The notes: generated from the letters alone by a model not told the origin. Shown: positions 33,294 to 46,822, numbered from the stretch's first letter. The stretch is 64,000 nucleotides of DNA from an uncultured Clostridia bacterium (GCA_937885645.1 CALABJ010000018.1:72203-136202), one strand, 5' to 3'. Numbers and translations are program-made.

Positions 33294-33321
33294 CAGAGCA
33301 GAGCACCTCATCTCAATCAAC

Positions 33322-33386
33322 CAAAAAACCGAGAGCAATCTCGGTTTTTTTATTAAAAGAAAAAACGGACTTGTTTGTCCGTTTTT
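33322..33386. repeat. Double-hairpin terminator cassette, left copy (inverted repeat partner of 44064-44129)
   Basis: aaaaaaccgagagcaatctcggttttttt followed by aaaaaacggacttgtttgtccgttttt, lying between convergent genes. By my manual alignment it matches the reverse complement of 44064-44129 except for a 1-nt T-run indel and 3 loop positions. Confidence 0.7.
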
Positions 33387-33400
33387 GTTTTGCACTTCCT

Positions 33401-33994
33401 CTATTCTTGAATGTACGTAGGATAAGTGGTTTTGTCCTCATCGGTGATTTCTCGCAGAGCCCTGCAGGGCACTCCAACTGCCACCACACCACTGGGGATA
33501 TCTTTTGTCACCACACTGCCCGCACCTATGACAGAGTCGTCGCCGATTGTCACACCAGCAAGAATTGTGCTATGCGCTCCTATCCAAACGTTGTTGCCAA
33601 TGGTTATAGGTTTTGCAATCTCCACTCCTGCCTTGCGCATTTCAGGGTCTATAGCATGCTCGGCGGTTGTGATGCAACAGTATGGCGCGATGAAAACGTT
33701 GTTGCCAAAAGTCACTTTTGCGCCGTCTGTGATGACAAGACCATGGTTTGAATAAAAGTTGTCACCAACGGATATGTTGTAGCCATAGTCGCACCAAAAA
33801 GGAGGGGTGATGATGACGTCACTGCCCATATTTCCAAGCAAAGTTTTCAAGATTTCAGTTTGCTCTATCCTGTCGTTTGGCGACAGTTGGTTGAAACGGA
33901 AACACTTGTCCTTGCCTTTTTTGATCTCCTCTTCATATTGCGGGTTGTAGCACCCCTGAAAAAACTGATATGTTGGCACAATAGGCTTTTCCAT
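33401..33994 (-). CDS. Sugar O-acetyltransferase (maltose/galactoside acetyltransferase family, hexapeptide repeats)
   Basis: 197 aa with a Maa-like N-terminus and left-handed beta-helix repeats (IGNNVWIGAHSTILAGVTIGDDSVIGAGSVV). Confidence 0.85.
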   Translation of the reverse strand: MEKPIVPTYQFFQGCYNPQYEEEIKKGKDKCFRFNQLSPNDRIEQTEILKTLLGNMGSDVIITPPFWCDYGYNISVGDNFYSNHGLVITDGAKVTFGNNVFIAPYCCITTAEHAIDPEMRKAGVEIAKPITIGNNVWIGAHSTILAGVTIGDDSVIGAGSVVTKDIPSGVVAVGVPCRALREITDEDKTTYPTYIQE

Positions 33995-34064
33995 AAGACT
34001 CTCCTTTTCATAATAATATCACCCTTTCCACACAATTTCAATATCAAAATTAAGCATCAAACTC

Positions 34065-34092
34065 TTGCAAATTGAAAATAATATGTTATAAT
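34065..34092 (+). promoter_or_regulatory. Putative sigma-A promoter of ssrA
   Basis: TTGCAA (34065-34070), 16-nt spacer, TGtTATAAT (-10 at 34087-34092). About 17 nt upstream of the mature tmRNA 5' end. Confidence 0.5.
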
Positions 34093-34108
34093 ACGACTAC
34101 ACTCTTTT

Positions 34109-34474
34109 GGGGGTGTACTGGATTCGACTACTGGTTGGAGTCGGGATAAGCATGTCGCAGGCTCGTCTGCGTTAAAACGGAAAGCTAAAATTAAATGCAA
34201 AAAACAATACTATGAGATCCTCAAACATGGGTCTCGCCCTCGCTGCATAATTTAGTCAGCGTGTCGCCCCGAGGTTTTCTGTTCCCTTGGCAAGCGGCAT
34301 CAGAAAAACAGACAACGCCAGCCCAGTGTCCTGTAAGTTGGTTGTCATGAAGGACTCATCAATCTGCGGTTCGCCCACGTACCAAAGTGCGAAAAATCTA
34401 AACGTGAGATAAACATGTAGAAAGTCGCGGTGAAGGCTTTTAGGACCGGGGTTCAACTCCCCGCATCTCCACCA
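34109..34474 (+). ncRNA. ssrA: tmRNA (SsrA)
   Basis: 5' GGGGGTGTACTGGATTCGAC. The 3' T-arm is cGGGGTTCAACTCCCCg plus CATCTCCACCA. The acceptor stem pairs, including a G3:U pair. The internal tag ORF gca aaa aac aat act atg aga tcc tca aac atg ggt ctc gcc ctc gct gca taa encodes AKNNTMRSSNMGLALAA*. Confidence 0.9.
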
Positions 34475-34475
34475 A
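34454..34475 (+). repeat. attL-side 22-bp direct repeat (3' end of ssrA)
   Basis: caactccccgcatctccaccaa is identical to 44039-44060. Confidence 0.85.
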
Positions 34476-34476
34476 T

Positions 34477-34520
34477 GACAACCATATTCGAACTCTGTTC
34501 GAGACTGGTTGTCTTTTTCT
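34477..34520 (+). terminator. Element-supplied terminator for ssrA
   Basis: gacaacca...tggttgtc stem (34477-34513) followed by ttttt, immediately after the tmRNA CCA end. Confidence 0.6.
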
Positions 34521-34700
34521 TTATCAATGAATTATAGCACAATGCTTTATGCCGCGAAAGGTTCTTTACATGAGTAGGAACGTGTTAGGCTATTTGCCAA
34601 GGCAAAACAAAAGCCCCTTGGGCGGTGGTGTTGGCTTCTTTGCCATCATACCACGTTCCGAAGAGGCTCGTGTCAAGAGCACCGTGGAATAAACATTGCA

Positions 34701-36224
34701 CTATCCAATTATCATCTCTATATCTATGTCAAATAGATATGGCTCCTTCTTGCTCTCAATATAGACTGGCATCACCAGTTTTTCTTTGTAAAATAAAAAG
34801 CCCTGACTTATCTCAGGACTTGTTGTTATTGGGCTGTTTAGATATATTTCAATTTTGTCGTTGAAAACTATGATCTCTTTTATTAAAGTTCCAATCAGCA
34901 TTTGTGCATCCAGCCTTAATGCCTTTTCGTAAAATGATTTTATTTGCACCTCATTCAAACAGATTATCGTCTTGCATTTCTCAATGCTTATTTCCTTTTC
35001 TAGCTCAATTTGTCTGGTTTCAAGTTCATGCAATCGCTTATTTGTTGTGTTAGACATTATACCTCTTTCAAGCGCAGCAACCAAGTTATTTAAAGAAGTT
35101 TCTACCTGCCTTAATTCTCGTTGTAGTGAGCCAAGCCGAGGATTGTCTTTAAGCAACTTATTCTGCAAAGCCATAACATTTTTAATTAAGCCATTCATCG
35201 TTGTAGGTTCACATAATTTTGAAATGATAATATCTATGATAAAATTCTCAAAATCATCCTTCCGAATAGTTGTTTTTTGGCAACCATTTCTATATGTTTT
35301 TCTGCCACGACATTTGTAGTAATGGACTTTTTTGCCCGTCTTAGATGTTCCACTTTCTGCGCTAAAAGGTTTGCCACAATAACCACATTTTACCTTATCT
35401 CTCAGCAGATAAACGGCATTAAGACTTCGTGTTCCTCTAAAATTAGTACTCAAGATTTGTTGGACTTGTTGATAGACCTCTACATCAACTATTTTAGGAT
35501 ATATGTTGTCAAACACCTCTCCATTATGCCTATATATCCCCGTGTATTTTTCCTTTCTCAAAATATTGTAAAGCATGTTCATATTGAAAGGCTTTCCTCT
35601 GTAAAGAACACCCTTTTCGGTGAGCGACTTAATAATTTGTGGCACGTATACACCAACGGCATATTGTGAGAAAATATACCTTACAATTTCTGCCTCGCCC
35701 TCGTTGATAACAATCTTCTTATCAACCACCTTGTATCCGTAGGGGACACCTCCACCACAATATAATCCTTTCTTTCGATTTTCATCTTGTCCACGGCGTA
35801 TCTTTTGTGACATTTCAGCTGAGTAATATTCAGCGATACCAATATAGACGTTTTCAAGCAGTATGCCATCTAGGTTTTTTGTGCCATCAATATTCTCGGA
35901 TGTTCGTTGCGTTGCAGAGATAAGAATCTTGCCATTATCGGTCAATTTCTTCTTGTTGAGTATGACCTCAGTTGAGTTTCTTCCAAATCGATCTATGGCA
36001 TAAACAAGAACGATTTCCCATGGTGCATTTTTGCTATCTGACAGCATTTGTTGGAATGCTGCTCGGTTATCATTGGTGCCTGTCATGGCACGATCTATGT
36101 ATGTGTTGACAATAAGCAAGTTGTTATCTCTTGCATATTTTTCACACACTGTAAGTTGACCTTCAATAGATTGTTCGGTCTGTGCATTGCTAGAGTATCT
36201 AGCATAGATTACTGCAGATTTCAT
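34701..36224 (-). CDS. Large serine recombinase (integrase)
   Basis: N-terminal resolvase catalytic domain AVIYARYSSNAQTEQSIEGQ. Then a recombinase domain, a zinc-ribbon (CGYCGKPFS...YYKCRGRK) and a coiled-coil-like region. 507 aa. Confidence 0.9.
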   Translation of the reverse strand: MKSAVIYARYSSNAQTEQSIEGQLTVCEKYARDNNLLIVNTYIDRAMTGTNDNRAAFQQMLSDSKNAPWEIVLVYAIDRFGRNSTEVILNKKKLTDNGKILISATQRTSENIDGTKNLDGILLENVYIGIAEYYSAEMSQKIRRGQDENRKKGLYCGGGVPYGYKVVDKKIVINEGEAEIVRYIFSQYAVGVYVPQIIKSLTEKGVLYRGKPFNMNMLYNILRKEKYTGIYRHNGEVFDNIYPKIVDVEVYQQVQQILSTNFRGTRSLNAVYLLRDKVKCGYCGKPFSAESGTSKTGKKVHYYKCRGRKTYRNGCQKTTIRKDDFENFIIDIIISKLCEPTTMNGLIKNVMALQNKLLKDNPRLGSLQRELRQVETSLNNLVAALERGIMSNTTNKRLHELETRQIELEKEISIEKCKTIICLNEVQIKSFYEKALRLDAQMLIGTLIKEIIVFNDKIEIYLNSPITTSPEISQGFLFYKEKLVMPVYIESKKEPYLFDIDIEMIIG

Positions 36225-36411
36225 ATTTTATCCTCCTATTTTGTATTAATAAAATTTGTCTTTCGACAGGAGCAAAGAAAACGGAACGGCGTTAAGCTGC
36301 TCGCTTTTCTTTTGAGTTCATCTGCTTTTATACAAGGGTTGAGTATCAATGCACCTTGCCCTTGTATAAAAGAGTCGTTCCGTTTATGCTCCACAAAAGG
36401 CGAAAGAAAAA

Positions 36412-37293
36412 CTAGTTCGCCTTTCTCATTTGTGCTATTACTTCGGGGCTAACTTTTCCCATATAACAACCCTCATCTAAGCATTGAAAGTCGTCAAAAA
36501 GTATTAGTTTAATTCCTTTCTTTTCGTCCATGCTGCACGCCACATCTTCATCCAAAATGTCCGAAATAAAATAGGTCGGCGTGCCTTTGGAATACACTAC
36601 TCTCTCACCGGATTTTTCTAGGTATTTCATCAAGTATCTTTTGGCATCTTGTATTGCATCCATATTGCTTTGGATAGGGCTGAAATCAGACCTTCCAAAC
36701 CTTTCATTGAAATATGTGTTTTGCGTTGTAGTTTGCCTTTTATGAGTGTTGAAACTGTAATCGGTCACTTCTATTAACTCACCAACCATTGCGCCCTCAG
36801 GGATGTTAAAAATGCCGTGGAAGTGCAATCTGTTCTTTTCTGGACTACGTTCCCAAACGCCGATATATACCCAACCTTTTCTATGACTCATTTTCTTCAA
36901 GCAATTGGATAGTTTCTTTTTGAAACTTTCTTCATCGTGTAATTTGTCGTCATAGGTGAATGTGCAAAAGTAGTTCCATCTTCCAATATTAATTTTCCTA
37001 GACAATCTCTTTCTTCGTTCAATAAGGTTTCTTTGTCGCTTTTCCATATATTCATCTGCAAATTGTTTTGCCTCATTTTCATCTTCAAAATATCCTTTCA
37101 ATTCCCTTATCAATTCTTCTTTCTTCTCAACCTTTTTCTTGCCTTTGTTTTCCTCAAATACTTTGTCCGCTTTTTCTTTTAATTCAATGTCATCTTTGCT
37201 TATTTTCTTTCGTTTCTTCGTAGGTCTTGTTGTCTTTGGTATGGCAATATAATGACTGCCGTCTGAGTAAATTTTTGTCTCTTCGTAAAACAT
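36412..37293 (-). CDS. Rolling-circle replication initiator (HUH endonuclease, Rep)
   Basis: Motif I WNYFCTFTYD, motif II (HUH) RLHFHGIFN and motif III AKRYLMKYLEKS (catalytic Tyr). Lys-rich N-terminus. Confidence 0.75.
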   Translation of the reverse strand: MFYEETKIYSDGSHYIAIPKTTRPTKKRKKISKDDIELKEKADKVFEENKGKKKVEKKEELIRELKGYFEDENEAKQFADEYMEKRQRNLIERRKRLSRKINIGRWNYFCTFTYDDKLHDEESFKKKLSNCLKKMSHRKGWVYIGVWERSPEKNRLHFHGIFNIPEGAMVGELIEVTDYSFNTHKRQTTTQNTYFNERFGRSDFSPIQSNMDAIQDAKRYLMKYLEKSGERVVYSKGTPTYFISDILDEDVACSMDEKKGIKLILFDDFQCLDEGCYMGKVSPEVIAQMRKAN

Positions 37294-37296
37294 GTT

Positions 37297-37446
37297 TTAA
37301 TCCTCCTTTTCGTTTTCTAGTTGCTCTTTGTGAAGCGACAAAACTCGTGCTAGCAGTGTGGCATAAATTGCCTTCTGCTGTTGTTCACTAAGGCTATTGA
37401 CATCTATGTTTCCGCGCACAATAACCTCAATTCCATTTTTGTCCAT
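37297..37446 (-). CDS. Small hypothetical protein (49 aa) translationally coupled to Rep
   Basis: Not in the ORF track because it is under 60 aa. AAAAGGAGG lies 7 nt upstream of the ATG at 37446. Translation: MDKNGIEVIVRGNIDVNSLSEQQQKAIYATLLARVLSLHKEQLENEKED. The stop lies 3 nt before the rep ATG. Confidence 0.5.
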   Translation of the reverse strand: MDKNGIEVIVRGNIDVNSLSEQQQKAIYATLLARVLSLHKEQLENEKED

Positions 37447-37769
37447 AGCGACACCTCCTTTTGTTTTATTTCAAAAGGTATGAAAAAAACGCAATACGAA
37501 AACGTATTACGCCATTCCATTAAGTGCACCATCCGATACTAGCCCTCGGACGACGGGTTTGCGCCTTTTTTATTCGGCAATCTTTACATTAGGCTTGCCA
37601 CCTTGAATGCGATTTCAGTCCTTTTTTATTCAACTTGATTTTATCTTATTTTGTTTTGAGGGTGTGAGTCTTTTGCCGTTAAGATATCCACACTTTCCGT
37701 TATGAAAATATAGGAAAACGATACTTTTAGGTAAGTTAGTGATGTCTGAATTTGTGGCAAAGAAAAAGT

Positions 37770-37884
37770 CCCCCCAATATATAGCCACGAAAAACGCAAA
37801 ATTTAACGGTCTAAACGAAAAATTCTTGAAAAAATTTTTATCCCCTCAATATATATACCTTGAGAACAGGCAAAATATAACGGT
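37770..37884. repeat. Two ~45-bp imperfect direct repeats in the element's non-coding region (iteron-like)
   Basis: ccccccaatatatagcc...gcaaaatttaacggt (37770-37810) versus cccctcaatatatatacc...gcaaaatataacggt (37842-37884). Confidence 0.5.
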
Positions 37885-37935
37885 TTTTTGAAAAAAGTTA
37901 AAAAAAATTTAATTGCCTTTGAAAAGATAAAGAAT

Positions 37936-37999
37936 CCAGCCAGAGGGATAGGCGAAAGATTGCACAAGCGGGCTAGCGTGCAACTTCGCCCCCTGCTGG
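37936..37999. other. Long imperfect hairpin (candidate single-strand origin or structured RNA)
   Basis: Three nested stems: CCAGC(c)AG(a)GG / CCCTGCTGG, GGCGAA / TTCGCC and TTGCAC / GTGCAA. About 22 bp over 64 nt. Confidence 0.45.
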
Positions 38000-38038
38000 C
38001 TTTATCTCAAAGCAATTTAGTTTTGTTTTTACACAACC

Positions 38039-38093
38039 GTGTGCTTGTCTATGGCGGAGCGAAGCGACGCCACTTGTATCAAGACAAGCACAC
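38039..38093 (-). other. Hairpin carrying a CTTGATA nick-site-like motif (candidate double-strand origin for the HUH Rep)
   Basis: Perfect 12-bp outer stem gtgtgcttgtct / agacaagcacac and inner stem tggcg / cgcca. The minus strand (the rep-coding strand) reads gtgtgcttgTCTTGATACaag at 38077-38083. Confidence 0.5.
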
Positions 38094-38204
38094 GTCTCAG
38101 TGCCATTCCATCGTAAATTTTGAAAAAAGATTGATTTTTTAATTAATTTGTGTTAAACTAATAATGTTCCACGGGACGAACAATATAACTTGGAGATTTT
38201 GTTA

Positions 38205-38393
38205 ATGAATGACGAATTTATTACCGCAAATCAAGCAGCAAAAAGATGGAACATTACGCAACGAAGAGTGCAAATCTTATGCGCTAAAGGGCGAATTGAC
38301 GGAGTCTTTAAATTGGGCGAAAGCTGGGTGATTCCTGCAAATGCCAAAAAACCAATCGACAGAAGAATTAAAAAGGAAAAAGAAAATGTTTAA
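38205..38393 (+). CDS. Small helix-turn-helix DNA-binding protein (excisionase/MerR-like HTH; controller or RDF candidate)
   Basis: 62 aa. ITANQAAKRWNITQRRVQILCAKGRIDGVFKLGESWVIP resembles excisionase-type HTH proteins. GGAG lies 9 nt upstream. Its 3' end overlaps the first methyltransferase start by 8 nt. Confidence 0.6.
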   Translation: MNDEFITANQAAKRWNITQRRVQILCAKGRIDGVFKLGESWVIPANAKKPIDRRIKKEKENV

Positions 38394-39429
38394 TGTATTA
38401 GATTTGTTTTGTGGATGCGGTGGATTGTCTTATGGATTTAAATCTGCAGGATATAATGTAGTTTTAGGTATTGACAATGATAAAAATGCCCTGGAAACAT
38501 TCGAATTTAACCATAAAAATTCAAAGTCAATATGTGGTGATATTACTACCATACGCGCAGAAGATATAAGTCGTATTGTTGGTGGAAAACAAATTGACGT
38601 TATCATTGGTGGACCGCCTTGCCAAGGAATGTCTTTATCCGGTCCTAGAAGATTCGATGATCCAAGAAATAAACTGTATTTATCTTATATTCGCCTTGTT
38701 GAAGAACTTCAACCTAAAGCGTTTGTTATAGAAAATGTTCCTGGATTAGTGTCGTTATTTAACGGACAAATTAAGGAAAGCATTGTCGAAAGATTAACAG
38801 CCTTAGGTTATAATGTGCAATACAAAATTTTGTGTTCGGCTGATTATGGTGTTCCCCAAAGTCGCAGAAGAGTTGTTTTTGTTGGATTAAAAACGGGCGA
38901 ATTTGTATACCCTGAAATTAATAATAATCAAGTAACTTGTGAAATGGCGTTGAGTGATTTGCCCCCCTTGATAGATTGTTTAGGGGAAGAAAATCAAGAA
39001 TATGCTACCAGAGCCACTTGCGATTATCAAAAACTGATGAGAAAACGTTCTAATGTAGTGAAAAATCATATAGCAGCAACTCATTCTGATAAAGTAAAAA
39101 ACATTATTTCTATGGTTCCCGATGGTGGTAATTATAAAAACCTCCCCGAACCCTATCGCAGCAGTCGAAATTTTCACGTGGCATGGACGCGTTTTAATAG
39201 TCAAAAGCCTGCTCCCACTATTGATACGGGGCATCGACATCATTTCCATTATAAGTATGATAGAGTTCCTACGGTTAGAGAATGTGCGAGGTTGCAATCA
39301 TTTCCCGATGACTTTATCTTCTTGGGAAACAAAACACAGCAATTCAGACAGGTTGGCAATGCTGTTCCACCATTAATGGCACAGGCGATTGCTGAACAGT
39401 TACTGCAATTTATTACTAAGGGGAACTAA
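38386..39429 (+). CDS. DNA (cytosine-5)-methyltransferase 1
   Basis: Motif I DLFCGCGG, IV GGPPCQGMS, VI ENVPGL, VIII QSRRRV and X GNAVPP. The start is taken at MFNVLDLF. Confidence 0.9.
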   Translation: MFNVLDLFCGCGGLSYGFKSAGYNVVLGIDNDKNALETFEFNHKNSKSICGDITTIRAEDISRIVGGKQIDVIIGGPPCQGMSLSGPRRFDDPRNKLYLSYIRLVEELQPKAFVIENVPGLVSLFNGQIKESIVERLTALGYNVQYKILCSADYGVPQSRRRVVFVGLKTGEFVYPEINNNQVTCEMALSDLPPLIDCLGEENQEYATRATCDYQKLMRKRSNVVKNHIAATHSDKVKNIISMVPDGGNYKNLPEPYRSSRNFHVAWTRFNSQKPAPTIDTGHRHHFHYKYDRVPTVRECARLQSFPDDFIFLGNKTQQFRQVGNAVPPLMAQAIAEQLLQFITKGN

Positions 39430-39430
39430 T

Positions 39431-40840
39431 ATGTATAAGGTTCCTGAAGAATATTATTTTAGAATACACCACGTTCGTCCGCGCTTTAAAGGCGATATTG
39501 AAAATGTTTTATTATTTATGGCGACAGAAATTTCCAAAATGGAAGAAATGCCTGACAAAGATTTTGCTAACGAATTAAACAATGCCATTAGAAGATATCC
39601 TGGCAATGGTATAAGAGAAATTAAAACAATTAACAATTGGAGAACGGAAATATCTGCTTTATTTGGTTATTTCATTGTGGAAAATGGAATAACTCGCGCT
39701 GGTAAGCGCGCTATTGAATTGGCTCAAAAGGAGGATTTGGTAGAAGCGTTTAAGACTTTCCTTTATACTTTCCAATATCCAGGCGCACATATTAAAACTC
39801 ACGAAGTATTAAAGCAAATTGAAAAAGGTGTTCATTTTAAGCCTGCACAGTACATACTACAAGTACTAGATGAGGCGGAAAAGGATGCGAATGGTAGAGT
39901 TGGATTAACCAAAGAAGAAGTTTGCCATTGTATTTTTAACGATTTGAGAGCAACGGCGCAATTAGAAACCCCGTTGGATACTTGGAAAAGGATAAAACAT
40001 AATCGCGATTTGGAAATGGAATATGATTCTACAGGAGATGTCGTTCGATATGCTGGTGATATCGTGGATTATATGGAAATTGCAAACTTATTAGTTTCCC
40101 ACGATTGTCGTTGTTATTACAAAAACAAGCTTGAAAGTGAAACAATATTAAAGTTTATTAATTCATCCGAGTGGTATAGTGCTTATGATAAACTAATTCA
40201 AAAGAAAAGCGCAACGCTTGAAAATATCAAAGATTGCGTAGTTGGTTGGTTTAAGTATGTAAATAAGGATTTGGCGGATACTGACTTCACTACGGATATT
40301 TTAGCGTTTATTGCAAACGATACGGACGAATATAAAGACCTTCAAAAAAGTAAAGATGATATTTTTGAGAAGTTGTTGGGTGGAGAAGATATTAAGACTA
40401 AGGATATTGGAGATATCGGAGAAAGTCTTGTTCATTCTCACGAATGTCAGAGAATTAAAATTGGTGGACGTGGAGACCTTATTCATTTAATTAAACGAAT
40501 CCCTACTCAATTTGCCGTGGGTTATGATATACAGTCCGTTGAAATTGATGAAAGAAAGAGATACATTGAAGTAAAAACTACAATTAGCTCAAAACCTTTA
40601 CATTTCAATAAAATTCATCTTACTCCAAATGAATGGAGCACAGCAACTACAACTCGTGACCGTTATTTTGTTTATAGGCTTATGATAAGCAAGGTGGATA
40701 AAAAGTTGTATGTCATTCAAGACCCTGTTGGTTTGTATAAAAATGATATAATTGAAATGATACCTAAAAATGGTGCGGAGATTACGTTAAACGTAGATAC
40801 CGCAGGACAATATGAGGAGTTATTATCGTGGGCAAATTAA
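39431..40840 (+). CDS. Putative restriction endonuclease (C-terminal PD-(D/E)xK, DUF3883-like domain)
   Basis: 469-aa ORF squeezed between two m5C methyltransferase genes: 1-nt gap upstream, 13-nt overlap downstream. The C-terminus has GYDIQS...YIEVKTT (D...ExK) and ...RDRYFVYRL..., resembling DUF3883. The N-terminal ~330 aa are unrecognised. Confidence 0.55.
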   Translation: MYKVPEEYYFRIHHVRPRFKGDIENVLLFMATEISKMEEMPDKDFANELNNAIRRYPGNGIREIKTINNWRTEISALFGYFIVENGITRAGKRAIELAQKEDLVEAFKTFLYTFQYPGAHIKTHEVLKQIEKGVHFKPAQYILQVLDEAEKDANGRVGLTKEEVCHCIFNDLRATAQLETPLDTWKRIKHNRDLEMEYDSTGDVVRYAGDIVDYMEIANLLVSHDCRCYYKNKLESETILKFINSSEWYSAYDKLIQKKSATLENIKDCVVGWFKYVNKDLADTDFTTDILAFIANDTDEYKDLQKSKDDIFEKLLGGEDIKTKDIGDIGESLVHSHECQRIKIGGRGDLIHLIKRIPTQFAVGYDIQSVEIDERKRYIEVKTTISSKPLHFNKIHLTPNEWSTATTTRDRYFVYRLMISKVDKKLYVIQDPVGLYKNDIIEMIPKNGAEITLNVDTAGQYEELLSWAN

Positions 40841-41793
40841 AAGTAGCATCATTATTTTGTGGTTGTGGCGGTACTGATGTTGGTTTGTTAGGCGGATTTG
40901 ACTTTTTAGGCAAGAATTATCCTAATAATCCCGTAAAAATTGTATATGCGAACGACATTGACGATAATGCTTGTCGCATATTTGAAGAAAATTTTGGTAT
41001 TACGCCTGATAATCGTGATATTAGAGAAATAAAATCAGAAGAACTTCCCAATTTTGATATTTTGACAGGTGGTTTTCCTTGTCAATCGTTTTCTATTGTC
41101 GCTCAAAATCCTAAACGCTTAGGCGTTAAAGACGATAGAGGCAAGTTGTTTTTTGAAATGTGTCGCATTTTAAGAGATAAAAAGCCAAAATGTTTTATAG
41201 CAGAAAATGTAAAAGGCATTTTGTCCGCTAATGAAAAAAATGCATTTCCGTTAATTACTAAAGAATTTGAAGATAGCGGCTATAATGTATCTTATAAACT
41301 TCTCAATGCGGTTAACTTTGGCGTTCCACAAAAGAGAGAAAGAGTTATTATTGTCGGCATAAGAAAAGATTTAGGTTTCACATTCGACTTTAACGGTTTG
41401 CCGCAAGAAGGCGATTTCCCTATTGCTTCACTCTCTCAAGTAATAGAAAATAGTGTTCCTGAAAAATACTTCTTTAGTCAAAAAGCCGTTGACGGAATGA
41501 TGAGAAAAAGAGAAACTATGAACAAAGGTCGTGCTCAAGACATCACTCAACCTTGCAATACGGTTGGAGCACACCTTGCAAAAGTTTCGTTGAATAGTAC
41601 TGACCCCGTTTTAATGGTCGGAGAAAGATATAGAAGATTTACTCCGAGAGAAGTTGCTCGCATTCAGTCTTTCCCGGAAACTTTCAAATTGGTAGGTTCG
41701 GAATCGGCTCAATATAAGGCTTTAGGCAATGCTATTGCACCTGTTATGTTTTGGCATGTAGCAAATTCTGTATTAAAACGCTTAAAAGACTAA
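40828..41793 (+). CDS. DNA (cytosine-5)-methyltransferase 2
   Basis: GTG start. Motif I SLFCGCGG, IV GGFPCQSFS, VI ENVKG, VIII QKRERV and X GNAIAPV. Confidence 0.9.
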   Translation: MGKLKVASLFCGCGGTDVGLLGGFDFLGKNYPNNPVKIVYANDIDDNACRIFEENFGITPDNRDIREIKSEELPNFDILTGGFPCQSFSIVAQNPKRLGVKDDRGKLFFEMCRILRDKKPKCFIAENVKGILSANEKNAFPLITKEFEDSGYNVSYKLLNAVNFGVPQKRERVIIVGIRKDLGFTFDFNGLPQEGDFPIASLSQVIENSVPEKYFFSQKAVDGMMRKRETMNKGRAQDITQPCNTVGAHLAKVSLNSTDPVLMVGERYRRFTPREVARIQSFPETFKLVGSESAQYKALGNAIAPVMFWHVANSVLKRLKD

Positions 41794-41806
41794 AAAAGGA
41801 GGAATT

Positions 41807-42940
41807 ATGGAATATATTAATAAGGAAAGCAAAAAAGACATATTGGTGGAAAAAGAAGAAAGTGAACTTTTGCCAACAGTAAACATTCGGGATTATAAGT
41901 TTACAACTATGGGTGGTGACATCCAAATTAGACAGTTTGTTGACCAGCTTAATGAAGGAGATATTGAGATTCCCGATATACAACGCCATTACGTTTGGCC
42001 GCACCTTCAGGCCAGTCGTTTTATAGAGTCAGCATTGCTTGATTTGCCTTTACCTAGTGTTTTTTTATGCAAACAAAAAAATGGCAAATATTTAATCGTA
42101 GACGGGTTGCAAAGGCTTAGCACTCTAAAAATGTTTTTAAATATGGAAACAATTAATGGTAAAATATTTAAACTCAGCAATTCAAAAGAGATTTATGAAG
42201 ATTGGAGAGGTAAAACATTCGGAGAGCTATCTGTTGATGACAAACGAAAATTGAAAAATAAAACGATACACGCTATTATAGTTGAACAGCAAAACCCTGA
42301 AAATTATGATGGTTTATTCTTAATATTTGAAAGAATAAACTCGGGAGGGGTGCAATTAAATCAACAAGAGATCCGAAATGCTATATATCAGACGGATTAC
42401 AATAGCTTATTGGCAACAATAAATGAAGACCCACTATGGAGATCGTTTTTTGGAGATAAAAATTCTCACAAACGAATGAAAGATGTAGAGATGATTTTGC
42501 GCTTTTTTGCGTTGGTGGATCATCCTATTAAAAACACTGACACGGGAACAACTTCTTTTGTAGCACTCTTAAATAAACAGATGAACGAAAATAAGGATGT
42601 CACCCAAGAAAAAATGGAAGCATCAAAAGATAGATTTTTGGCAACTCTTAACAAGCTTCGAGACTTTTTCAATACTGATATTTTTAGAATGAACATTTCG
42701 GATAAAAATAAAGTTACAAAGAAGTTCTACGCTACCTTGTTTGATTCAATTATGATAGCCACGGATTATGCTCTTTTAAAGGACCCGAATATACATTCCA
42801 ATACAAGCAAACTGGAAGAATTGTTTAAAAATGATTTGTTCAAAGGATTTATAAATTCTCATACATCAGAAAACAAGTCGATCTTTGGGAGAATAAATTT
42901 GGCGTGTCAAATTTTGTACGGAATGAACTATGCAAGATGA
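41807..42940 (+). CDS. DUF262 (ParB-like/GmrSD N-terminal) domain protein
   Basis: IEIPDIQRHYVW and YLIVDGLQRLSTL motifs typical of DUF262. I saw no DUF1524/HNH-type C-terminal motif. Confidence 0.75.
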   Translation: MEYINKESKKDILVEKEESELLPTVNIRDYKFTTMGGDIQIRQFVDQLNEGDIEIPDIQRHYVWPHLQASRFIESALLDLPLPSVFLCKQKNGKYLIVDGLQRLSTLKMFLNMETINGKIFKLSNSKEIYEDWRGKTFGELSVDDKRKLKNKTIHAIIVEQQNPENYDGLFLIFERINSGGVQLNQQEIRNAIYQTDYNSLLATINEDPLWRSFFGDKNSHKRMKDVEMILRFFALVDHPIKNTDTGTTSFVALLNKQMNENKDVTQEKMEASKDRFLATLNKLRDFFNTDIFRMNISDKNKVTKKFYATLFDSIMIATDYALLKDPNIHSNTSKLEELFKNDLFKGFINSHTSENKSIFGRINLACQILYGMNYAR

Positions 42941-43490
42941 TTATGTAAATAAAATAAATGCTACATTAAAAGAGTTGCTTAGGATACGGAAAAAAATCAA
43001 TAAATTTCAAAGCTCGCCTCATTCTATCAATATGCTTCCTGATATAAATGTATATAAAAACTATGCTGTGATTTTAGCATACGGATGTATAGAAAATATA
43101 TCTAAAAATATTATTGCTGATTATTATAAAATTTCAACAATGCCTATGCGATGCCAAGAGTTTGCAGCACGATTATTGGGCGATAAGTATTCTCTGTCCG
43201 TTGACAAAGAGAGCTTTAAGAATTTCCTCAAAAAAGAATGTAGTAGCGAATGGTTTGAAGAGATGAAACGCCGAGAAAAAGCTGATTTGTTAGATAAGCG
43301 CTATAAAAGATGCAGATATTCGAAGATGTGGATGGCATTAAATTTTATCTTTCAAGAAAGGTGTAATTTTGCGCATGGCAAATCTTCTTATCAAGGGACA
43401 ATTAAGGAGCTGATTGATAATTTTTATTCTGCTAGATCGTGGTTGTATGAATTAGATAACATCGTTTCCTCGTCCAAATTGAATGGATAA
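42930..43490 (+). CDS. HEPN-like protein (Rx4H motif; MAE_28990/MAE_18760-like)
   Basis: 186-aa ORF overlapping the DUF262 gene by 11 nt. It contains QERCNFAHGK (R-x4-H), the HEPN catalytic signature. The family assignment is from memory. Confidence 0.5.
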   Translation: MQDDYVNKINATLKELLRIRKKINKFQSSPHSINMLPDINVYKNYAVILAYGCIENISKNIIADYYKISTMPMRCQEFAARLLGDKYSLSVDKESFKNFLKKECSSEWFEEMKRREKADLLDKRYKRCRYSKMWMALNFIFQERCNFAHGKSSYQGTIKELIDNFYSARSWLYELDNIVSSSKLNG

Positions 43491-43531
43491 ATACATCGGG
43501 CTATAGATATGAAAATCGGAGGGGGTAATTT

Positions 43532-43666
43532 ATGAACTGCAATTGTGCCATTTGTAATAACAATAGTCCATTTGACATGCCTAAAGAAATAGTAGAAGCG
43601 GCCGTAATGCTGCAATGGCTAAGAGCTTCCCTTTTGTATATTTGCCAAATTCAGGGCAAAATCTAA
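43532..43666 (+). CDS. Small Cys-containing ORF (44 aa), possibly 5' part of a frameshifted gene
   Basis: GGAGGGGG lies 7 nt upstream of the ATG. Translation: MNCNCAICNNNSPFDMPKEIVEAAVMLQWLRASLLYICQIQGKI. It overlaps the +1-frame ORF 43615-43797. Confidence 0.3.
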   Translation: MNCNCAICNNNSPFDMPKEIVEAAVMLQWLRASLLYICQIQGKI

Positions 43667-43865
43667 ACAATTTAAAGGCTTATAATCGTGAGTTGGCAAT
43701 GGCATCTTCAAAAAACAAACAATATCATAAAGCCGCAAAGATAATTGTTAATAAGTGCTGTGGTGAAGATATTATAGTACATCATCCACCCTATTAATGC
43801 CGTGGAATTGATATAAACAATCATCTATTAGACATTGACTTAATGTTCGAATATCTTTGATATTG

Positions 43866-43911
43866 CTCCACCAAAAGGACAAAACGGACAAACAAGTCCG
43901 TTTTTTCTTTT
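43866..43911 (+). repeat. Partial third copy of the ssrA 3' tip plus its downstream terminator
   Basis: ctccaccaaaaggacaaaacggacaaacaagtccgttttttctttt versus 44052-44097 ctccaccaaaagtacaaaacggacaatttagtccgttttttctttt. The 46-nt alignment has 4 mismatches, 3 of them in the hairpin loop. Confidence 0.7.
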
Positions 43912-44038
43912 GGCAGAGTGTGGGGATACACAACTACGTTGTGTGCAACTTTGTTGCTATGAACCACGGGGCCGGGCTGGCGCTCATTCGCCTGTGCAAG
44001 CACGCTCATTTCACTATTACAGCGCGCGGACGCGCCTA

Positions 44039-44060
44039 CAACTCCCCGCATCTCCACCAA
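44039..44060 (+). repeat. attR-side 22-bp direct repeat
   Basis: caactccccgcatctccaccaa is identical to 34454-34475. Confidence 0.85.
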
Positions 44061-44063
44061 AAG

Positions 44064-44129
44064 TACAAAACGGACAATTTAGTCCGTTTTTTCTTTTAAT
44101 AAAAAACCGAGATTGCTCTCGGTTTTTTG
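44064..44129. repeat. Double-hairpin terminator cassette, right copy (probable native ssrA terminator + terminator of the lipoprotein gene)
   Basis: acaaaacggacaatttagtccgtttttt followed by aaaaaaccgagattgctctcggtttttt. Inverted-repeat partner of 33322-33386. Confidence 0.7.
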
Positions 44130-44146
44130 TTTGAGATTAGGATTTG

Positions 44147-46822
44147 TTAGATTGTTTTTGTGAAGGTGATTGTGGCGGTGTCGCCGTTGATTGAGTCCAC
44201 AACAAAGTTGTAAACAAGAGCATTTCCGCTGTCGTCTGTGACTGCACCCATTGTGTCACCTGCGATATAGGTGAAAGTGTCGTTTGATGACTTTATATAC
44301 TCAATAAGGTTGTTTAAAGTACCGTATTGGTCAGATGAGTGGGTATTGTTGTTGTAGACGTCATAGTACGTTTCACCGTCATAAACCTCACGATAGAGGG
44401 AAGCATTGACGTGATAGACCACCACGCCGTCACGGGAGAAATAGCCGTAGTCATCACCTGCGTTGAGGCCTGTGTTGGTGTAGTACATAAGGACGTAATA
44501 TTCTTGATATGCACCAAGGTCATCAGACCAGTTGTTTGCGATGATGATGGTGTCACCTGTCTTGCCGAAATCGGTGAGAGTGAGGGTGACAGAGTCCTCC
44601 GCCACAACAAGGCGAGAGGGGGTAATCCAGCCGTAGTTGAACTTGGTGTAGGGGTTGTGGTCGCCGAACATAGCGTCCATCATATCTTTGCCGTCGAGGA
44701 GCAAATCCTCATTGACGTAAGCGGTGTCGTAGTAGTCGTCTGCACCGAGGACGTGGGCAAATTCGTGGACGTATGTGTAGGTGTTGAAGGCGGTGGTGCC
44801 GGTGTAGTCAACGTTGCCGTCCTCGTCGTAGGACTCATGCATAAATTGATATGACGCCCAGAGATAGTCGTTGGCACTGACACCGTCGTATTCGTAGTAA
44901 TATCCGTCCTCGTCCACGTGGGTGTTCCAATATCTATATGCCCAGTAGAAGTCGGCGGAGTCATCTATGTCGAGAGTGTGGATGATGACAACTGCATCAA
45001 TAATGGAGTTGCCGTCGCTGTCGAACTCGCTGAGATCCATAGTGGTGGCAAGATATTGAAGAGCCTCGTCAATGATCAGTTGATCGCCGTTCATACCGCC
45101 TTCAGCGTCAGTAGAGTTGGCGTAATATGTGCTGTTGTTTTCAGGTCTAAACCAACTGTCAAGGACGGTGAAGTCCAACGTCAATTGACCATAGCTTGAA
45201 ATGTTGAAATATTCATAGACAGAGTAGAATCCGTCAGTTGAATCATTGCTTTCAAATGCCTTTTTGATGAGGTCGATATCGTATCCTTTGCTTGATGCCG
45301 TCACGTCAGCAAAGTCCACGGGAATGACAAGCACCTTAGGTGTGCCAGTTGTGGGGCATCCGTCAAGATAATATCCTTGGTCGTGGACGTTTTTCACATT
45401 GGTTGCTTTGGAGAAGTCAATGTTATATACACCATTTGTGCCTGAGGGGAGACCAAGTCCGTTGTTGGTGATGAGGTCAACATCATCAGTGTTGCCACCG
45501 CCGGTGTTTCCGCCAGTATTTCCGCTGTCACCACTGCCGTCACCCTCGGTGTAGAGATAGACATAAAGATCAACCACATATCCGTCTTCGGTGTTGTAGT
45601 ATGCCACGTCAATGCAGATGTCGCCCTTGTCGTAGAAATACCAAGTGTCACCGTATTCATCTACGTCACTGCCAGAGAGCACGTATCCTGCGCTGACAAG
45701 AGCGGAGCGATATGCATTGTATTCCGCCTCGGTATTGCCGTAGGTGTAGAAGTTGACGCCGTTTTCACCTTCAAGGGTATATTCGTCAACGTAATATTCG
45801 TTGTTTGAGAGGAAGGGGATAGTTTCACCCACTTTTGCAATTATCGTTTGATTTTCAGATGCAGTGAAAGCGGTGTAGGTCTTTGTGTCACCAGTGTTTC
45901 CGCCAGTATTTCCGTTATCACCACTGCCGTCATCTTCGGTGTAAAGATAGACGTATGAGTCCACCACGTACTCGCCTTCATAATAGTAGAATGAGATGTC
46001 AATGCAGACGTCGCCTTTTTCGTAATAATACCAAGTGTCGCCATATTCATCTTCGCCGTCACCCACAAGGGTATAGCCTACGCTGACGATAGTTGTGCAG
46101 TATGCGTCAAATTCCGCTTTGGTATTGCCGAAGGTGTAGAAAGCGATGTATGTGCCGTATTCATCACTGCCCACCTCAACGTAGTATTCGTCGTTGGGGA
46201 GGAAGGGGATAGTCTCACCAACCAAGTTTGTCAGCATATCAACTTCACCAGAAGTGAAAGAGGTGTAGGTTTTGCCTGAGGGAGTATCACCGTCACTAGG
46301 GGTATCTCCGCCAGAGGGAGTATCATCGCCTCCGGGATTGTCACCGCCGGGAGTATCACCACCGCCGGGGGTATCTTCGGGGATAATGCGAAGTGTTGCA
46401 ACGGCGGTGATTGTGCCGTTTGAGTATGACATTTCAACACGGATGACATTTTTGTCCGCAAGTTCTTTTTCATAGATGTGCCAAGTCTTGCCACCGATAT
46501 CATCTATGTAGGCATCTTTATATTCATATCCTGTCATAAGACTGCGATATGTGATAAAATCGTCAACCTCCGCACCATTGATGGTGTAGGTGACTGCTTC
46601 AGCATTTCCCACAACAGAATACTCATTGCAGGGCAGGAAGGGGATAGTCTCACCGACCAAATCCACAAACGCCGCTTTTTCTTCATCGGTGAAATCGGTG
46701 TAGAGGTATGTAGGTGTGCCGTCAGCAGGATTGTCGTCTATTGGTTCGTCAACGGGGCTACAAGCCACAAAAAGGGACAAACCAATGAGGAATACAAGGA
46801 TAAGTGCAAGCAGTTTTTTCAT
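44147..46822 (-). CDS. Secreted lipoprotein: three tandem ~130-aa repeats plus C-terminal M6 (InhA-like) zinc metalloprotease domain
   Basis: ATG at 46822 preceded by GAGGTG. Signal peptide MKKLLALILVFLIGLSLFVAC. KVLVIPVDFAD and the HEXXH motif in VHEFAHVLGADDYYD (nt 44753-44767) resemble M6 peptidases. Confidence 0.7.
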   Translation of the reverse strand: MKKLLALILVFLIGLSLFVACSPVDEPIDDNPADGTPTYLYTDFTDEEKAAFVDLVGETIPFLPCNEYSVVGNAEAVTYTINGAEVDDFITYRSLMTGYEYKDAYIDDIGGKTWHIYEKELADKNVIRVEMSYSNGTITAVATLRIIPEDTPGGGDTPGGDNPGGDDTPSGGDTPSDGDTPSGKTYTSFTSGEVDMLTNLVGETIPFLPNDEYYVEVGSDEYGTYIAFYTFGNTKAEFDAYCTTIVSVGYTLVGDGEDEYGDTWYYYEKGDVCIDISFYYYEGEYVVDSYVYLYTEDDGSGDNGNTGGNTGDTKTYTAFTASENQTIIAKVGETIPFLSNNEYYVDEYTLEGENGVNFYTYGNTEAEYNAYRSALVSAGYVLSGSDVDEYGDTWYFYDKGDICIDVAYYNTEDGYVVDLYVYLYTEGDGSGDSGNTGGNTGGGNTDDVDLITNNGLGLPSGTNGVYNIDFSKATNVKNVHDQGYYLDGCPTTGTPKVLVIPVDFADVTASSKGYDIDLIKKAFESNDSTDGFYSVYEYFNISSYGQLTLDFTVLDSWFRPENNSTYYANSTDAEGGMNGDQLIIDEALQYLATTMDLSEFDSDGNSIIDAVVIIHTLDIDDSADFYWAYRYWNTHVDEDGYYYEYDGVSANDYLWASYQFMHESYDEDGNVDYTGTTAFNTYTYVHEFAHVLGADDYYDTAYVNEDLLLDGKDMMDAMFGDHNPYTKFNYGWITPSRLVVAEDSVTLTLTDFGKTGDTIIIANNWSDDLGAYQEYYVLMYYTNTGLNAGDDYGYFSRDGVVVYHVNASLYREVYDGETYYDVYNNNTHSSDQYGTLNNLIEYIKSSNDTFTYIAGDTMGAVTDDSGNALVYNFVVDSINGDTATITFTKTI
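45485..46714 (-). repeat. Intragenic tandem repeats (3 units) in the lipoprotein gene
   Basis: The units start (P/K)TY..FT...LVGETIPFL(P/S). Units 2 (45884-46273) and 3 (45485-45883) are clearly similar at protein level and each ends in GSGD(N/S)GNTGGNTG. Unit 1 is diverged and ends in a TPGGGDTPGGDNPGGDDTPSGGDTPSDGDTPSG linker. Confidence 0.8.

Follow-up and report, generated by a model that had tools for sequence, protein, structure and literature searches.

A probable large serine recombinase element at the 3' end of ssrA and its relatives at tRNA gene ends in uncultured gut Clostridia

The tRNA and tmRNA genes are classic integration sites of genomic islands, and their use has so far been treated as a property of tyrosine integrases. 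In a survey of integrative and mobilizable elements (IMEs), those residing in tRNA genes use tyrosine integrases, and those with serine recombinases insert within protein genes and disrupt them; the Firmicute members include elements with noncanonical relaxases of the rolling-circle type (Rep_trans, Rep_2, and PHA00330), of which the PHA00330 class is related to phage rolling-circle replication (RCR) (Guedon 2017, PMC5704250). Serine-recombinase integration at tRNA genes has been called rare, with phiRSM and one Mycobacterium group of actinomycete integrative and conjugative elements (AICEs) as the cases given (Ghinet 2011, PMC3218068), and a large survey of large serine recombinases (LSRs) by Durrant et al. 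reports protein-coding target clusters only, the word "tRNA" being absent from its text. Here, we describe a stretch of 64,000 nucleotides from an uncultured Clostridia bacterium (GCA_937885645.1 CALABJ010000018.1:72203-136202), referred to below as the window, in which a 9,399-bp LSR element (34469-43868) very likely occupies the extreme 3' end of ssrA, the tmRNA gene. This grade applies jointly to the boundaries of the element, its insertion by the LSR, the proposed mechanism involving the T-arm of the target, the division into backbone and cargo, and the interpretation of a 22-bp repeat (the 22-mer) beyond the element as a relic.

Element ends and the empty site

A sequence-only reading of the window had proposed an integrative element in the 3' end of ssrA, bounded by two exact copies of the 22-mer, CAACTCCCCGCATCTCCACCAA. 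The insertion was borne out, and so was the repeat: only two copies are present (34454-34475 and 44039-44060), none is expected from shuffled sequences, and the left copy consists of the final 21 nt of ssrA plus 1 base. The intervening DNA is indeed richer in AT than its flanks, with a GC content of 0.32 to 0.39 over 34500-44000 versus 0.44 to 0.52 on either side. The right-hand bound had to be moved. Repeat analysis revealed a third attachment (att)-like site at 43866-43911 that the earlier reading did not contain, consisting of the last 9 nt of ssrA and a hairpin 91% identical to that following the 22-mer. The LSR element is flanked by this 9-bp repeat, CTCCACCAA, which places the right junction (43866-43874) 186 bp earlier than the 22-mer would. 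Furthermore, the right junction bears an inverted copy of the left-junction arm (GTTCGAATAT.../...ATATTCGAAC), in that GTTCGAATATCTTTGATATTG, located directly to the left of the 43866 copy, is the inverse of TGACAACCATATTCGAAC, the sequence following ssrA. When the two element ends are joined, a 48-bp dyad with perfect 10-bp termini is formed, which is the appearance expected of a serine-integrase attP.

Contigs of the same species, reached via homologs of the flanking host genes, yielded both states of the site. One of them (L097, GCA_017461985.1) carries no element, and its ssrA reads ...CATCTCCACCAA|AAAGTAAGAAACACGAACCC..., whereas four others (L084 to L087) are occupied by an LSR element at ssrA whose backbone is 96.6% identical to window 33342-38095. 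Gene spacing had suggested L085 to L087 as empty sites as well; reading of their sequences revealed the LSR element. The far half of the L084 contig is L094, in which the right junction, GTTCGAATATCTTTGATATTG-CTCCACCAA|AAAGCAAGAAACACGAACCC..., is 100% identical to the 33 nt of the window at 43844-43876. The empty strain continues straight from the 9-bp core CTCCACCAA into the sequence that follows this junction, the post-ssrA sequence of L097 and the post-core sequence of L094 sharing 95% identity over 126 nt and then 97% over a further 93 nt. Since both L097 and L094 contain the 22-mer, 200 to 330 bp downstream (about 300 bp in L097) and behind a short relic, the 22-mer is either older than the element or unconnected with it. 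These comparisons indicate that the LSR element ends at the 9-bp core and that the 22-mer exists with or without it. An empty site of the kind that the sequence-only reading had proposed to look for was found in a sister strain, with a core of 9 bp in place of the 22-mer. A search of GTDB representative genomes for the exact empty-site pattern (the ssrA end plus AAAG) gave no matches.

The crossover was further delimited by a 99%-identical LSR located at a different gene (L001). This element has the same end sequence as the window, and its host side is the 3' half of tRNA-Ala(GGC). Identity between the two loci starts only at CATCTCCACCAA, host-derived sequence in L001 reaching within 12 nt of the CCA; this confines the crossover to the last 12 nt and excludes the left edge of the 22-mer as its position. 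The claim that the element brings its own terminator for ssrA was also corroborated: the hairpin 3' of ssrA (34477-34513 plus a U-run) has an RNA fold of -18.7 kcal/mol (z = -5.5), and an equivalent hairpin follows the CCA in nearly all members of the family. An Rfam scan of 33500-44500 returned tmRNA and no other match, and exact-protein look-ups of the acetyltransferase encoded next to ssrA and of the LSR found neither on record.

The 186 bp between the right core and the end of the second 22-mer lie outside the LSR element and comprise hairpin T, a stretch of 127 bp, and the 22-mer. No P arm is present to the left of the 44039 copy in the window, and the 22-mer is devoid of the three bases at the start of the T-arm, which the LSR model calls for. 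An identity block starting in the T-loop is classic for tyrosine-integrase tDNA islands, for which it was reportedly described by Williams in 2002. We read the 44039 copy as a displaced tmRNA fragment of an older, nearly erased element, probably one of the tyrosine-integrase type with a crossover in the T-loop. Tandem duplication was rejected as the source of the 186-bp interval because just 46 nt are repeated. The strains L097 (12850-13180, minus strand) and L094 (about 8362-8598) have in common a relic of about 200 to 330 bp between ssrA or the right junction and the 22-mer, which starts with a P'-like arm and a hairpin (AAGAAACACGAAC...) and may itself be what is left of an earlier element. 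Its sequence is unrelated to that of the window relic, and homology between the two was dismissed, the match being limited to the last 33 nt.

The hairpin of the right junction, termed hairpin T, is present three times in the window. The copy at 33355-33385 is the acetyltransferase terminator and is 100% identical to the 43881-43911 copy; it belongs to the left arm (33317-33385) of an inverted repeat of about 80 bp, the arms of which are 88 to 93% complementary. The segment 33342-44141, which comprises the acetyltransferase gene, ssrA, the element, and the relic, lies between the ABC-transporter gene and a gene for a 903-aa protein and is inverted relative to L097 and L084/L094, and the inversion breakpoints appear to lie inside the hairpin. 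The sequence-only reading had taken the hairpin after the second 22-mer for the native terminator of ssrA. The hairpin (44067-44097) does fold, but the label is doubtful, as the same hairpin serves as the acetyltransferase terminator: in L097, the right-hand repeat copy (44067-44134) follows the acetyltransferase gene, and the supposed native terminator is therefore partly of other origin.

Recombinase clade and attachment-site geometry

The LSR gene is situated near the ssrA junction, in agreement with the earlier description, and its product has the three domains of this enzyme class: Resolvase (PF00239, 1.6e-25, residues 4-153), Recombinase (PF07508, 4.2e-15, residues 177-261), and Zn_ribbon_recom (PF13408, 1.2e-12, residues 273-331). 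It matches a PHROG integrase at 4e-105. Across 36 LSR homologs, R9, S11, S12, R45, D78-R79, and R82 are invariant or nearly so, and the zinc-ribbon residues C280, C283, C305, and C315 are invariant. Homologs number in the thousands; phage LSRs in GenBank show at most 37% identity to the window LSR, and homologs at 69% and 60% identity are located at tRNA-Val and tRNA-Ala 3' ends.

A profile scan of GTDB representative genomes yielded 80 loci, nearly all from uncultured gut Clostridia or Christensenellales, among which 79 hold a full-length homolog (L004 to L083; L006 was set aside because its stretch breaks off at the match). In 49 of these 79 (52/82 when L002, L003, and the window are counted), the LSR stop codon has a tRNA or tmRNA gene no more than 1.5 kb away, and every such gene has its 3' end towards the LSR. 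The targets comprise nine tRNA specificities (Ala, Val, Leu, Met, Gln, Ser, Glu, Arg, and Lys) and, in L005, L033, and the window, tmRNA. No tRNA was called at 33 loci; of these, 9 do not extend far enough for a judgment, 9 have a tRNA-like ...CCA junction missed by ARAGORN, and 5 have a junction of P arm, core, and P' arm. Such P-core-P' junctions are found downstream of the LSR in L014, L025, L066, L073, and L081, those of L066 and L073 being next to a nine-gene tRNA cluster in opposite orientation. There are also tandem arrays (L009, L023, and L057), in which the P' arm of one element comes directly after the right junction of another. At L059:241-6438 and L056:4001-5404, two or three LSR paralogs with 34 to 49% identity to the query are grouped within 8 kb, which suggests nested or adjacent serine-recombinase elements. 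The LSR clade targeting tRNA-type gene ends is large and apparently undescribed, and large island databases may hold members of it.

In all elements, 5 nt follow the encoded CCA before a conserved motif, AACCTAAATCGAAC (in the window, AACCATATTCGAAC), which lies inside the terminator hairpin. Right junctions were sought in each locus as the inverted motif beside a copy of the tRNA tail. This search delimited 16 elements with 17 right junctions, and in each of the latter the CCA ends exactly 15 nt past the motif; a reversed-motif control gave no junctions at the 15-nt offset. The tail repeats measure 6 to 9 nt, in line with the remark in the sequence-only reading that a 22-bp identity exceeds the crossover cores usual for LSRs, the elements are 5.4 to 11 kb in size, and the window site at 43866 fits exactly. 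When half-sites are anchored on the symmetric center, which corresponds to tRNA positions 71-72, the P and P' arms have the consensus GTTCgAtTTAsGTT..., with GTTCGATTT at half-site positions 24-16, and the B arm, that is, the tRNA itself, has the consensus GGGTTCgAaTCCC, with the T-arm sequence GTTCGAATC (G53-C61) at positions 19-11. Comparison of the P and B arms gave a sharp optimum at a 5-bp shift, with 6.25/9 identities versus 3.5 or fewer at all other shifts. The P and P' arms of one element also covary, as 0/20,000 permutations reached the identity observed for the 16 elements. For LI integrase, the zinc-ribbon motif occupies frame 16-24 in attP and 11-19 in attB, which is 5 bp nearer the center in attB (Rutherford et al. 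2013, PMC3783163), and the motif frames of the family coincide with those of LI integrase in the P arms and the B arm. From this agreement we infer that the clade uses the universal T-arm as the zinc-ribbon motif of attB and that strand exchange takes place at or beside the last two acceptor-stem bases (tRNA positions 71-72).

In the mechanism that we propose, the LSR would bind the dyad-symmetric attP of about 48 bp on the excised circle, GTTCGAATATCTTTGATATTG-CTCCACCAA-TGACAACCATATTCGAAC, as well as an attB in which the tRNA-like part of the tmRNA, with its T-arm and acceptor strand, forms the left half. Its zinc-ribbon domain would read GTTCGAWTY at positions 24-16 in both attP arms, and attB would supply the motif through the universal T-arm (tRNA G53-C61) at positions 19-11. 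Strands would be exchanged at or next to acceptor-stem positions 71-72. The target gene would be left intact because the discriminator base, the CCA, and a new terminator would come from the element. The model predicts GTTCGAATATCTTTGATATTGCTCCACCAATGACAACCATATTCGAAC as the attP junction and ...GCATCTCCACCAAAAGGACAAAACGG as the repaired attB. Since tmRNA mimics tRNA-Ala, the same enzyme, at 99% identity, is able to use tRNA-Ala(GGC) as well, and relatives reach at least nine tRNA specificities by carrying the matching core of 6 to 9 nt.

Backbone, cargo, and rival explanations

Beside the LSR, the element encodes a Rep-like protein of the HUH rolling-circle type, and the Rep gene is found directly upstream of the LSR gene at 49 loci and in 13/16 delimited elements. 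In 33 full-length homologs, the motifs FxTFT, H157-F-H159, and Y220xxxY224 are at least 95% conserved; YxxxY is a two-tyrosine motif, as in phiX174 gpA. The sole annotated relative of this Rep is a Microviridae replication initiator (33.8% identity over 128 aa). Searches with Rep found no plasmid encoding it in PLSDB and nothing useful among PDB sequences.

The most conserved DNA of the family is a 61-nt element at 38036-38096, which retains 80 to 100% nucleotide identity across about 27 loci whose LSRs are about 50% identical. It consists of a 14-bp outer stem and an inner stem with a nearly invariant GCGAAGC tip, and an invariant ACTTGT at 38072-38077 is unpaired. Nine of its 20 pairs, many of them in the inner stem, show compensatory changes, and the DNA fold has a z score of -3.9. 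GCGNAGC mini-hairpins are known to sit at replication initiation sites of single-stranded DNA (ssDNA) phages (PMC13037366). The hairpin is thus a strong candidate for an origin of Rep, either double or single strand, or for an origin of transfer (oriT). Partial second copies of it were noticed in L075, L042, L035, L065, and L038, with 24- to 27-nt matches to window 38071-38097; they correspond to the 3' half including ACTTGT, lie 600 to 700 nt from the full copy, and could be a termination or secondary nick site.

Homology between strains stops at this hairpin, at 38095 in L084 and at 38105 in L095; therefore, the cargo lies between the hairpin and the P arm. The conserved backbone is made up of the LSR, the two-tyrosine HUH Rep, and the origin-like hairpin, and the cargo is inserted beyond the hairpin and exchanged between elements. 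Most likely, the backbone serves as a rolling-circle module for replication of the excised circle and/or for initiating single-strand transfer via a helper conjugative element; the element would then be IME-like. A strain whose tmRNA allele is that of the window (L095:13248-15600 and L096) has a decayed copy of the element at ssrA: a deletion corresponding to window 34967-37817 has removed the LSR and Rep genes except for an 82-aa LSR stub, the origin-like hairpin is kept, and the cargo is a Fic protein; in this copy, the right junction was not found and the acetyltransferase gene is absent.

As the sequence-only reading had stated, the cargo in the window is made up of defense genes (Table 1), namely, a BpuJI-type restriction-modification (R-M) system and a pair of genes encoding a DUF262 and a HEPN protein, recognized by Pfam and PADLOC; the pair is a candidate two-gene defense system. 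The small helix-turn-helix (HTH) protein at the head of the cargo is probably a controller. It was rejected as a recombination directionality factor (RDF), since this HTH_17/excisionase-like open reading frame (ORF) occurs together with the R-M cassette (L075, 84% identity) and is absent from the backbone. The element of L075, with a 49%-identical LSR at a tRNA-Ser(GCT) site, contains the HTH gene and R-M cassette of the window at 84 to 95% protein identity; these genes (L075:5338-8521) comprise the HTH gene, M1, a BpuJI-like gene, and M2, the endonuclease gene being apparently split into 293-aa and 57-aa pieces. Between the HEPN gene and the right junction of the window, an ORF of about 45 codons (43533-43670) has a strong Shine-Dalgarno sequence, GGAGGGGG, and an N terminus rich in CxxC...C.

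The cargo of the 15 other delimited elements is mostly R-M as well, of the HaeIII, HpaII, AlwI, ICEA, and Eco57I types with many methyltransferases, in addition to Vsr, GmrSD_N, and AAA_13. The 16.5-kb element of L084/L094 carries different cargo on the window's backbone; its genes (L084:1-5659 and L094:7471-17277) code for a 2,540-aa TIR/TPR/LRR/Flg_new protein, an SMC_N/AAA_21 ATPase, and a Band_7/zinc-ribbon protein, and they may be defense or surface genes. The statement that no phage structural or conjugation genes are visible was upheld, none being present among the Pfam and PHROG domain matches of the window island. No type IV secretion system, coupling-protein, capsid, or terminase domains were found in the window island, nor in the cargo of the 15 relatives (61 ORFs), and Pfam and PHROG scans of the island and the relatives' cargo did not detect a canonical relaxase. 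In the window island, the integrase and the excisionase-like HTH protein were the sole PHROG matches, and no ORF contains a Phage_integrase (tyrosine integrase) domain. By its gene content, the element does not qualify as a phage satellite of the PICI/P4 type.

Table 1. Coordinates of ssrA, the LSR element, and the adjoining relic in the window
Feature	Position	Strand	Evidence or remark
ssrA (tmRNA gene), intact	34109-34474	+	ARAGORN; Rfam RF00023, 143 bits, full length; encodes the tag AKNNTMRSSNMGLALAA; 3' part is the B arm of attL
attL	34446-34493	+	Junction alignment of 51 loci
attL, B arm			tmRNA T-arm and acceptor 3' strand; GTTCAACTC at half-site positions 19-11
attL, putative central dinucleotide CC	34469-34470		tRNA-equivalent positions 71-72
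attL, P' arm	34471-34493		AACCATATTCGAAC at 34480-34493
Element-supplied intrinsic terminator for ssrA	34477-34520	+	Stem includes P' arm
Large serine recombinase, 507 aa	34701-36224	-	226 nt from ssrA end
HUH rolling-circle Rep-like protein, 293 aa	36412-37293	-	PF23343 REP_ORF2-G2P, 1e-10
Structured noncoding element, candidate Rep origin (double-strand, single-strand, or oriT)	38036-38096	+	Backbone/cargo boundary
Small HTH protein, 67 aa	38190-38393	+	HTH_17 8e-5; PHROG excisionase-like 4e-9
BpuJI-type IIS R-M cassette	38341-41793	+	Pfam; PADLOC MTase_II, REase_II
5-Methylcytosine (m5C) methyltransferases	38341-39429, 40828-41793	+	DNA_methylase PF00145 1e-81, 1e-75
Endonuclease	39389-40840	+	BpuJI_N 9.2e-100 (full profile), NOV_C 1.7e-13
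DUF262/GmrSD_N protein	41807-42940	+	GmrSD_N 4e-30; PADLOC NsnA 3.4e-66, PD-T4-2_A 7.5e-47
RiboL-PSP HEPN protein	42930-43490	+	HEPN_RiboL-PSP 3e-7; no PADLOC match
attR, true right end	43845-43892	+	Inverted P' motif; CCA ends exactly 15 nt after
attR, P arm	43845-43867		GTTCGAATA at positions 24-16
attR, core	43866-43874		9-bp repeat CTCCACCAA; putative central CC 43868-43869; host B' arm from 43870
Relic outside LSR element, 186 bp	43875-44060	+	Hairpin T, 127 bp, 22-mer
Hairpin T copy	43881-43911	+	Within 186-bp relic
22-bp tmRNA 3' fragment	44039-44060	+	Starts in T-loop
Hairpin T copy and second hairpin	44067-44134	+	Right arm of inverted repeat of about 80 bp

Several observations weigh against a mobile LSR element that reads the T-arm. 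The window's own right flank has no empty site, the sister strains supplying the proof, and the host-side B' arm contains no recognizable zinc-ribbon motif, unlike the attB sites of well-studied LSRs. The symmetric center is a palindromic GC for Leu, Lys, and Arg tRNA targets; because such a center is unusual for LSRs, the scissile dinucleotide may be one base off. Tandem arrays and P-core-P' junctions are hard to make by strict attP x attB recombination. Searches for the attL/attP pattern in IMG/VR and for the S2/S3 junction pattern in JGI metagenomes gave no matches in either case, and 19 whole-contig loci include no circular contigs, so the circular junction anticipated from the sequence was not recovered. 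The backbone has no RDF candidate, and Rep might act solely as a replication initiator or solely as a relaxase, or have no activity. In view of the undetected circular form, excision, replication, and transfer are described here as predictions. The single 9.6-kb element of the sequence-only reading (34476-44060), with the 22-bp repeats as its ends and the LSR integrating it in one piece, would account for an exact and nonrandom repeat and for a GC content that stays low until about 43900. It is scarcely credible, as the LSR-free strain has the same 22-mer pair, the occupied sister has its right junction at the 9-bp core and the 22-mer some 200 bp farther on, no P arm adjoins 44039, host sequence in L001 comes within 12 nt of the CCA, and repeats in the family are 6 to 9 nt long. 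That the GTTCGA motif reflects merely a terminator hairpin with a chance likeness to the T-loop, the target being chosen by the short core alone, would suit the location of the P' motif in the terminator stem and a B' arm devoid of the motif. This is very unlikely in view of a far-end P arm that carries the motif where no terminator is needed, at a mirror-image distance and covarying with P', a T-arm match with a sharp maximum at the shift of 5 bp expected from LSR structures, and a core of 6 nt that is insufficient alone for site specificity.

Two further readings concern what the LSR element does at present. It may be a fixed, immobile remnant in which the recombinase and Rep are relics or have been repurposed by the host, with which the undetected circular form, the missing RDF, the occupancy of most recovered same-species contigs, and the decayed L095/L096 copy without LSR and Rep are consistent. 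Yet the LSR and Rep frames are intact with all catalytic motifs present, neither att arm is damaged and the two remain symmetric, occupancy of the site is polymorphic (L097 lacks the element), an LSR of 99% identity and with the same element-end sequence occupies another gene, that for tRNA-Ala, and the cargo varies between strains on a 96.6%-identical backbone; we therefore consider a remnant unlikely. Polymorphism of the site, the second target of the 99%-identical enzyme, and turnover of the cargo argue for recent activity, as far as comparisons between strains can tell. A real but minor chance is left to an integrated rolling-circle plasmid or a satellite of ssDNA (Microviridae-like) phages, in which Rep and the hairpin would serve replication or packaging only. 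PF23343 is a family of Microviridae and Spiroplasma-phage initiators, the one annotated relative of the Rep is a Microviridae initiator, the Rep has a two-tyrosine motif like that of phiX174 gpA, and GCGNAGC mini-hairpins occur at microvirus complementary-strand origins. Microvirus genomes are about 4.4 to 6.1 kb in size. They are exceeded by the elements, at 5.4 to 16.5 kb; none of the 16 delimited elements contains a capsid or other phage gene, and the Rep is not encoded by any PLSDB plasmid. An LSR element with a backbone and exchangeable cargo, inserted at the acceptor end of the RNA gene, remains the reading that we prefer.

Implications and comparison with known systems

Beyond the window, we lean somewhat towards the view that a clade of serine integrases has converged independently on tRNA and tmRNA genes by means of the T-arm motif and a discriminator-CCA core, that a change of about 6 nt in the core retargets the element, that one enzyme serves both tRNA-Ala and tmRNA, and that the clade is a major overlooked vehicle of defense genes in gut Clostridia. 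If true, a gene-preserving serine clade would represent convergent evolution onto the same targets by an unrelated mechanism, and the att geometry suggests a reason for it, namely, a conserved universal sequence at the right distance from a replaceable gene end. Island finders that require a tyrosine integrase or a long tDNA fragment would miss such elements or misplace their ends, by 186 bp in the present case. LSRs with an attB in essentially every bacterium could serve as integration tools, and Rep-LSR elements appear to be common R-M carriers in uncultured gut Clostridia.

Islander-type islands with tyrosine integrases (Hudson 2015, PMC4383910) are alike in that they insert into tRNA and tmRNA 3' ends, restore the gene, and leave a displaced fragment at the far end, the counterparts in the window being the regenerated ssrA and two fragments, one of 9 nt at 43866 and an older one of 22 nt at 44039. 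Tandem arrays, relics at the site, and frequent defense or adaptive cargo are further features in common. They differ in the size and origin of the repeat, which is a block of 20 to 50 nt from the anticodon loop or T-loop in Islander-type islands, whereas here a serine enzyme is combined with an acceptor-end repeat of 6 to 9 nt and a dyad attP of about 48 bp without arm-type sites. The 22-mer relic is probably the trace of an island of the classical Islander kind. LSRs of the A118/LI, Bxb1, and phiC31 type (PMC3783163) have the same three-domain architecture, a dyad attP, and distal 9-bp motifs in frames 16-24 and 11-19. In contrast to these, the element described here preserves an RNA gene end instead of splitting a protein gene, its attB motif would come from a universal feature of RNA genes, and its B' arm is unrecognizable.

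The few serine recombinases recorded at tRNA genes are of a different sort. The filamentous phage phiRSM uses a small resolvase-like serine recombinase at tRNA-Ser, and the Mycobacterium AICEs use serine recombinases at tRNA-Leu; both are single-target systems of Proteobacteria or Actinobacteria, and no multi-tRNA clade, use of tmRNA, or T-arm logic has been described for them. The staphylococcal cassette chromosome (SCC), including SCCmec, inserts at the rlmH 3' end by means of the Ccr LSR pair ccrA/ccrB and has an MCM-like helicase replication module. Likewise, the element in the window is a small nonconjugative LSR island at the 3' end of a conserved gene that is kept active, with cargo that varies, arrays of the composite or tandem kind, and a putative replication module of its own. 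Unlike SCCmec, it has one LSR, a tRNA/tmRNA target, an HUH Rep, and other hosts. With the rolling-circle-relaxase IMEs of Firmicutes it has in common the small size, an integrase together with an RCR-initiator-like protein, adaptive cargo, and the lack of mating-pore genes, but no TcpA-type coupling protein was seen in it, and PF23343 and PHA00330 are likened here by description. The element thus works most like a Firmicute rolling-circle-relaxase IME and an SCC, and it is a member of neither.

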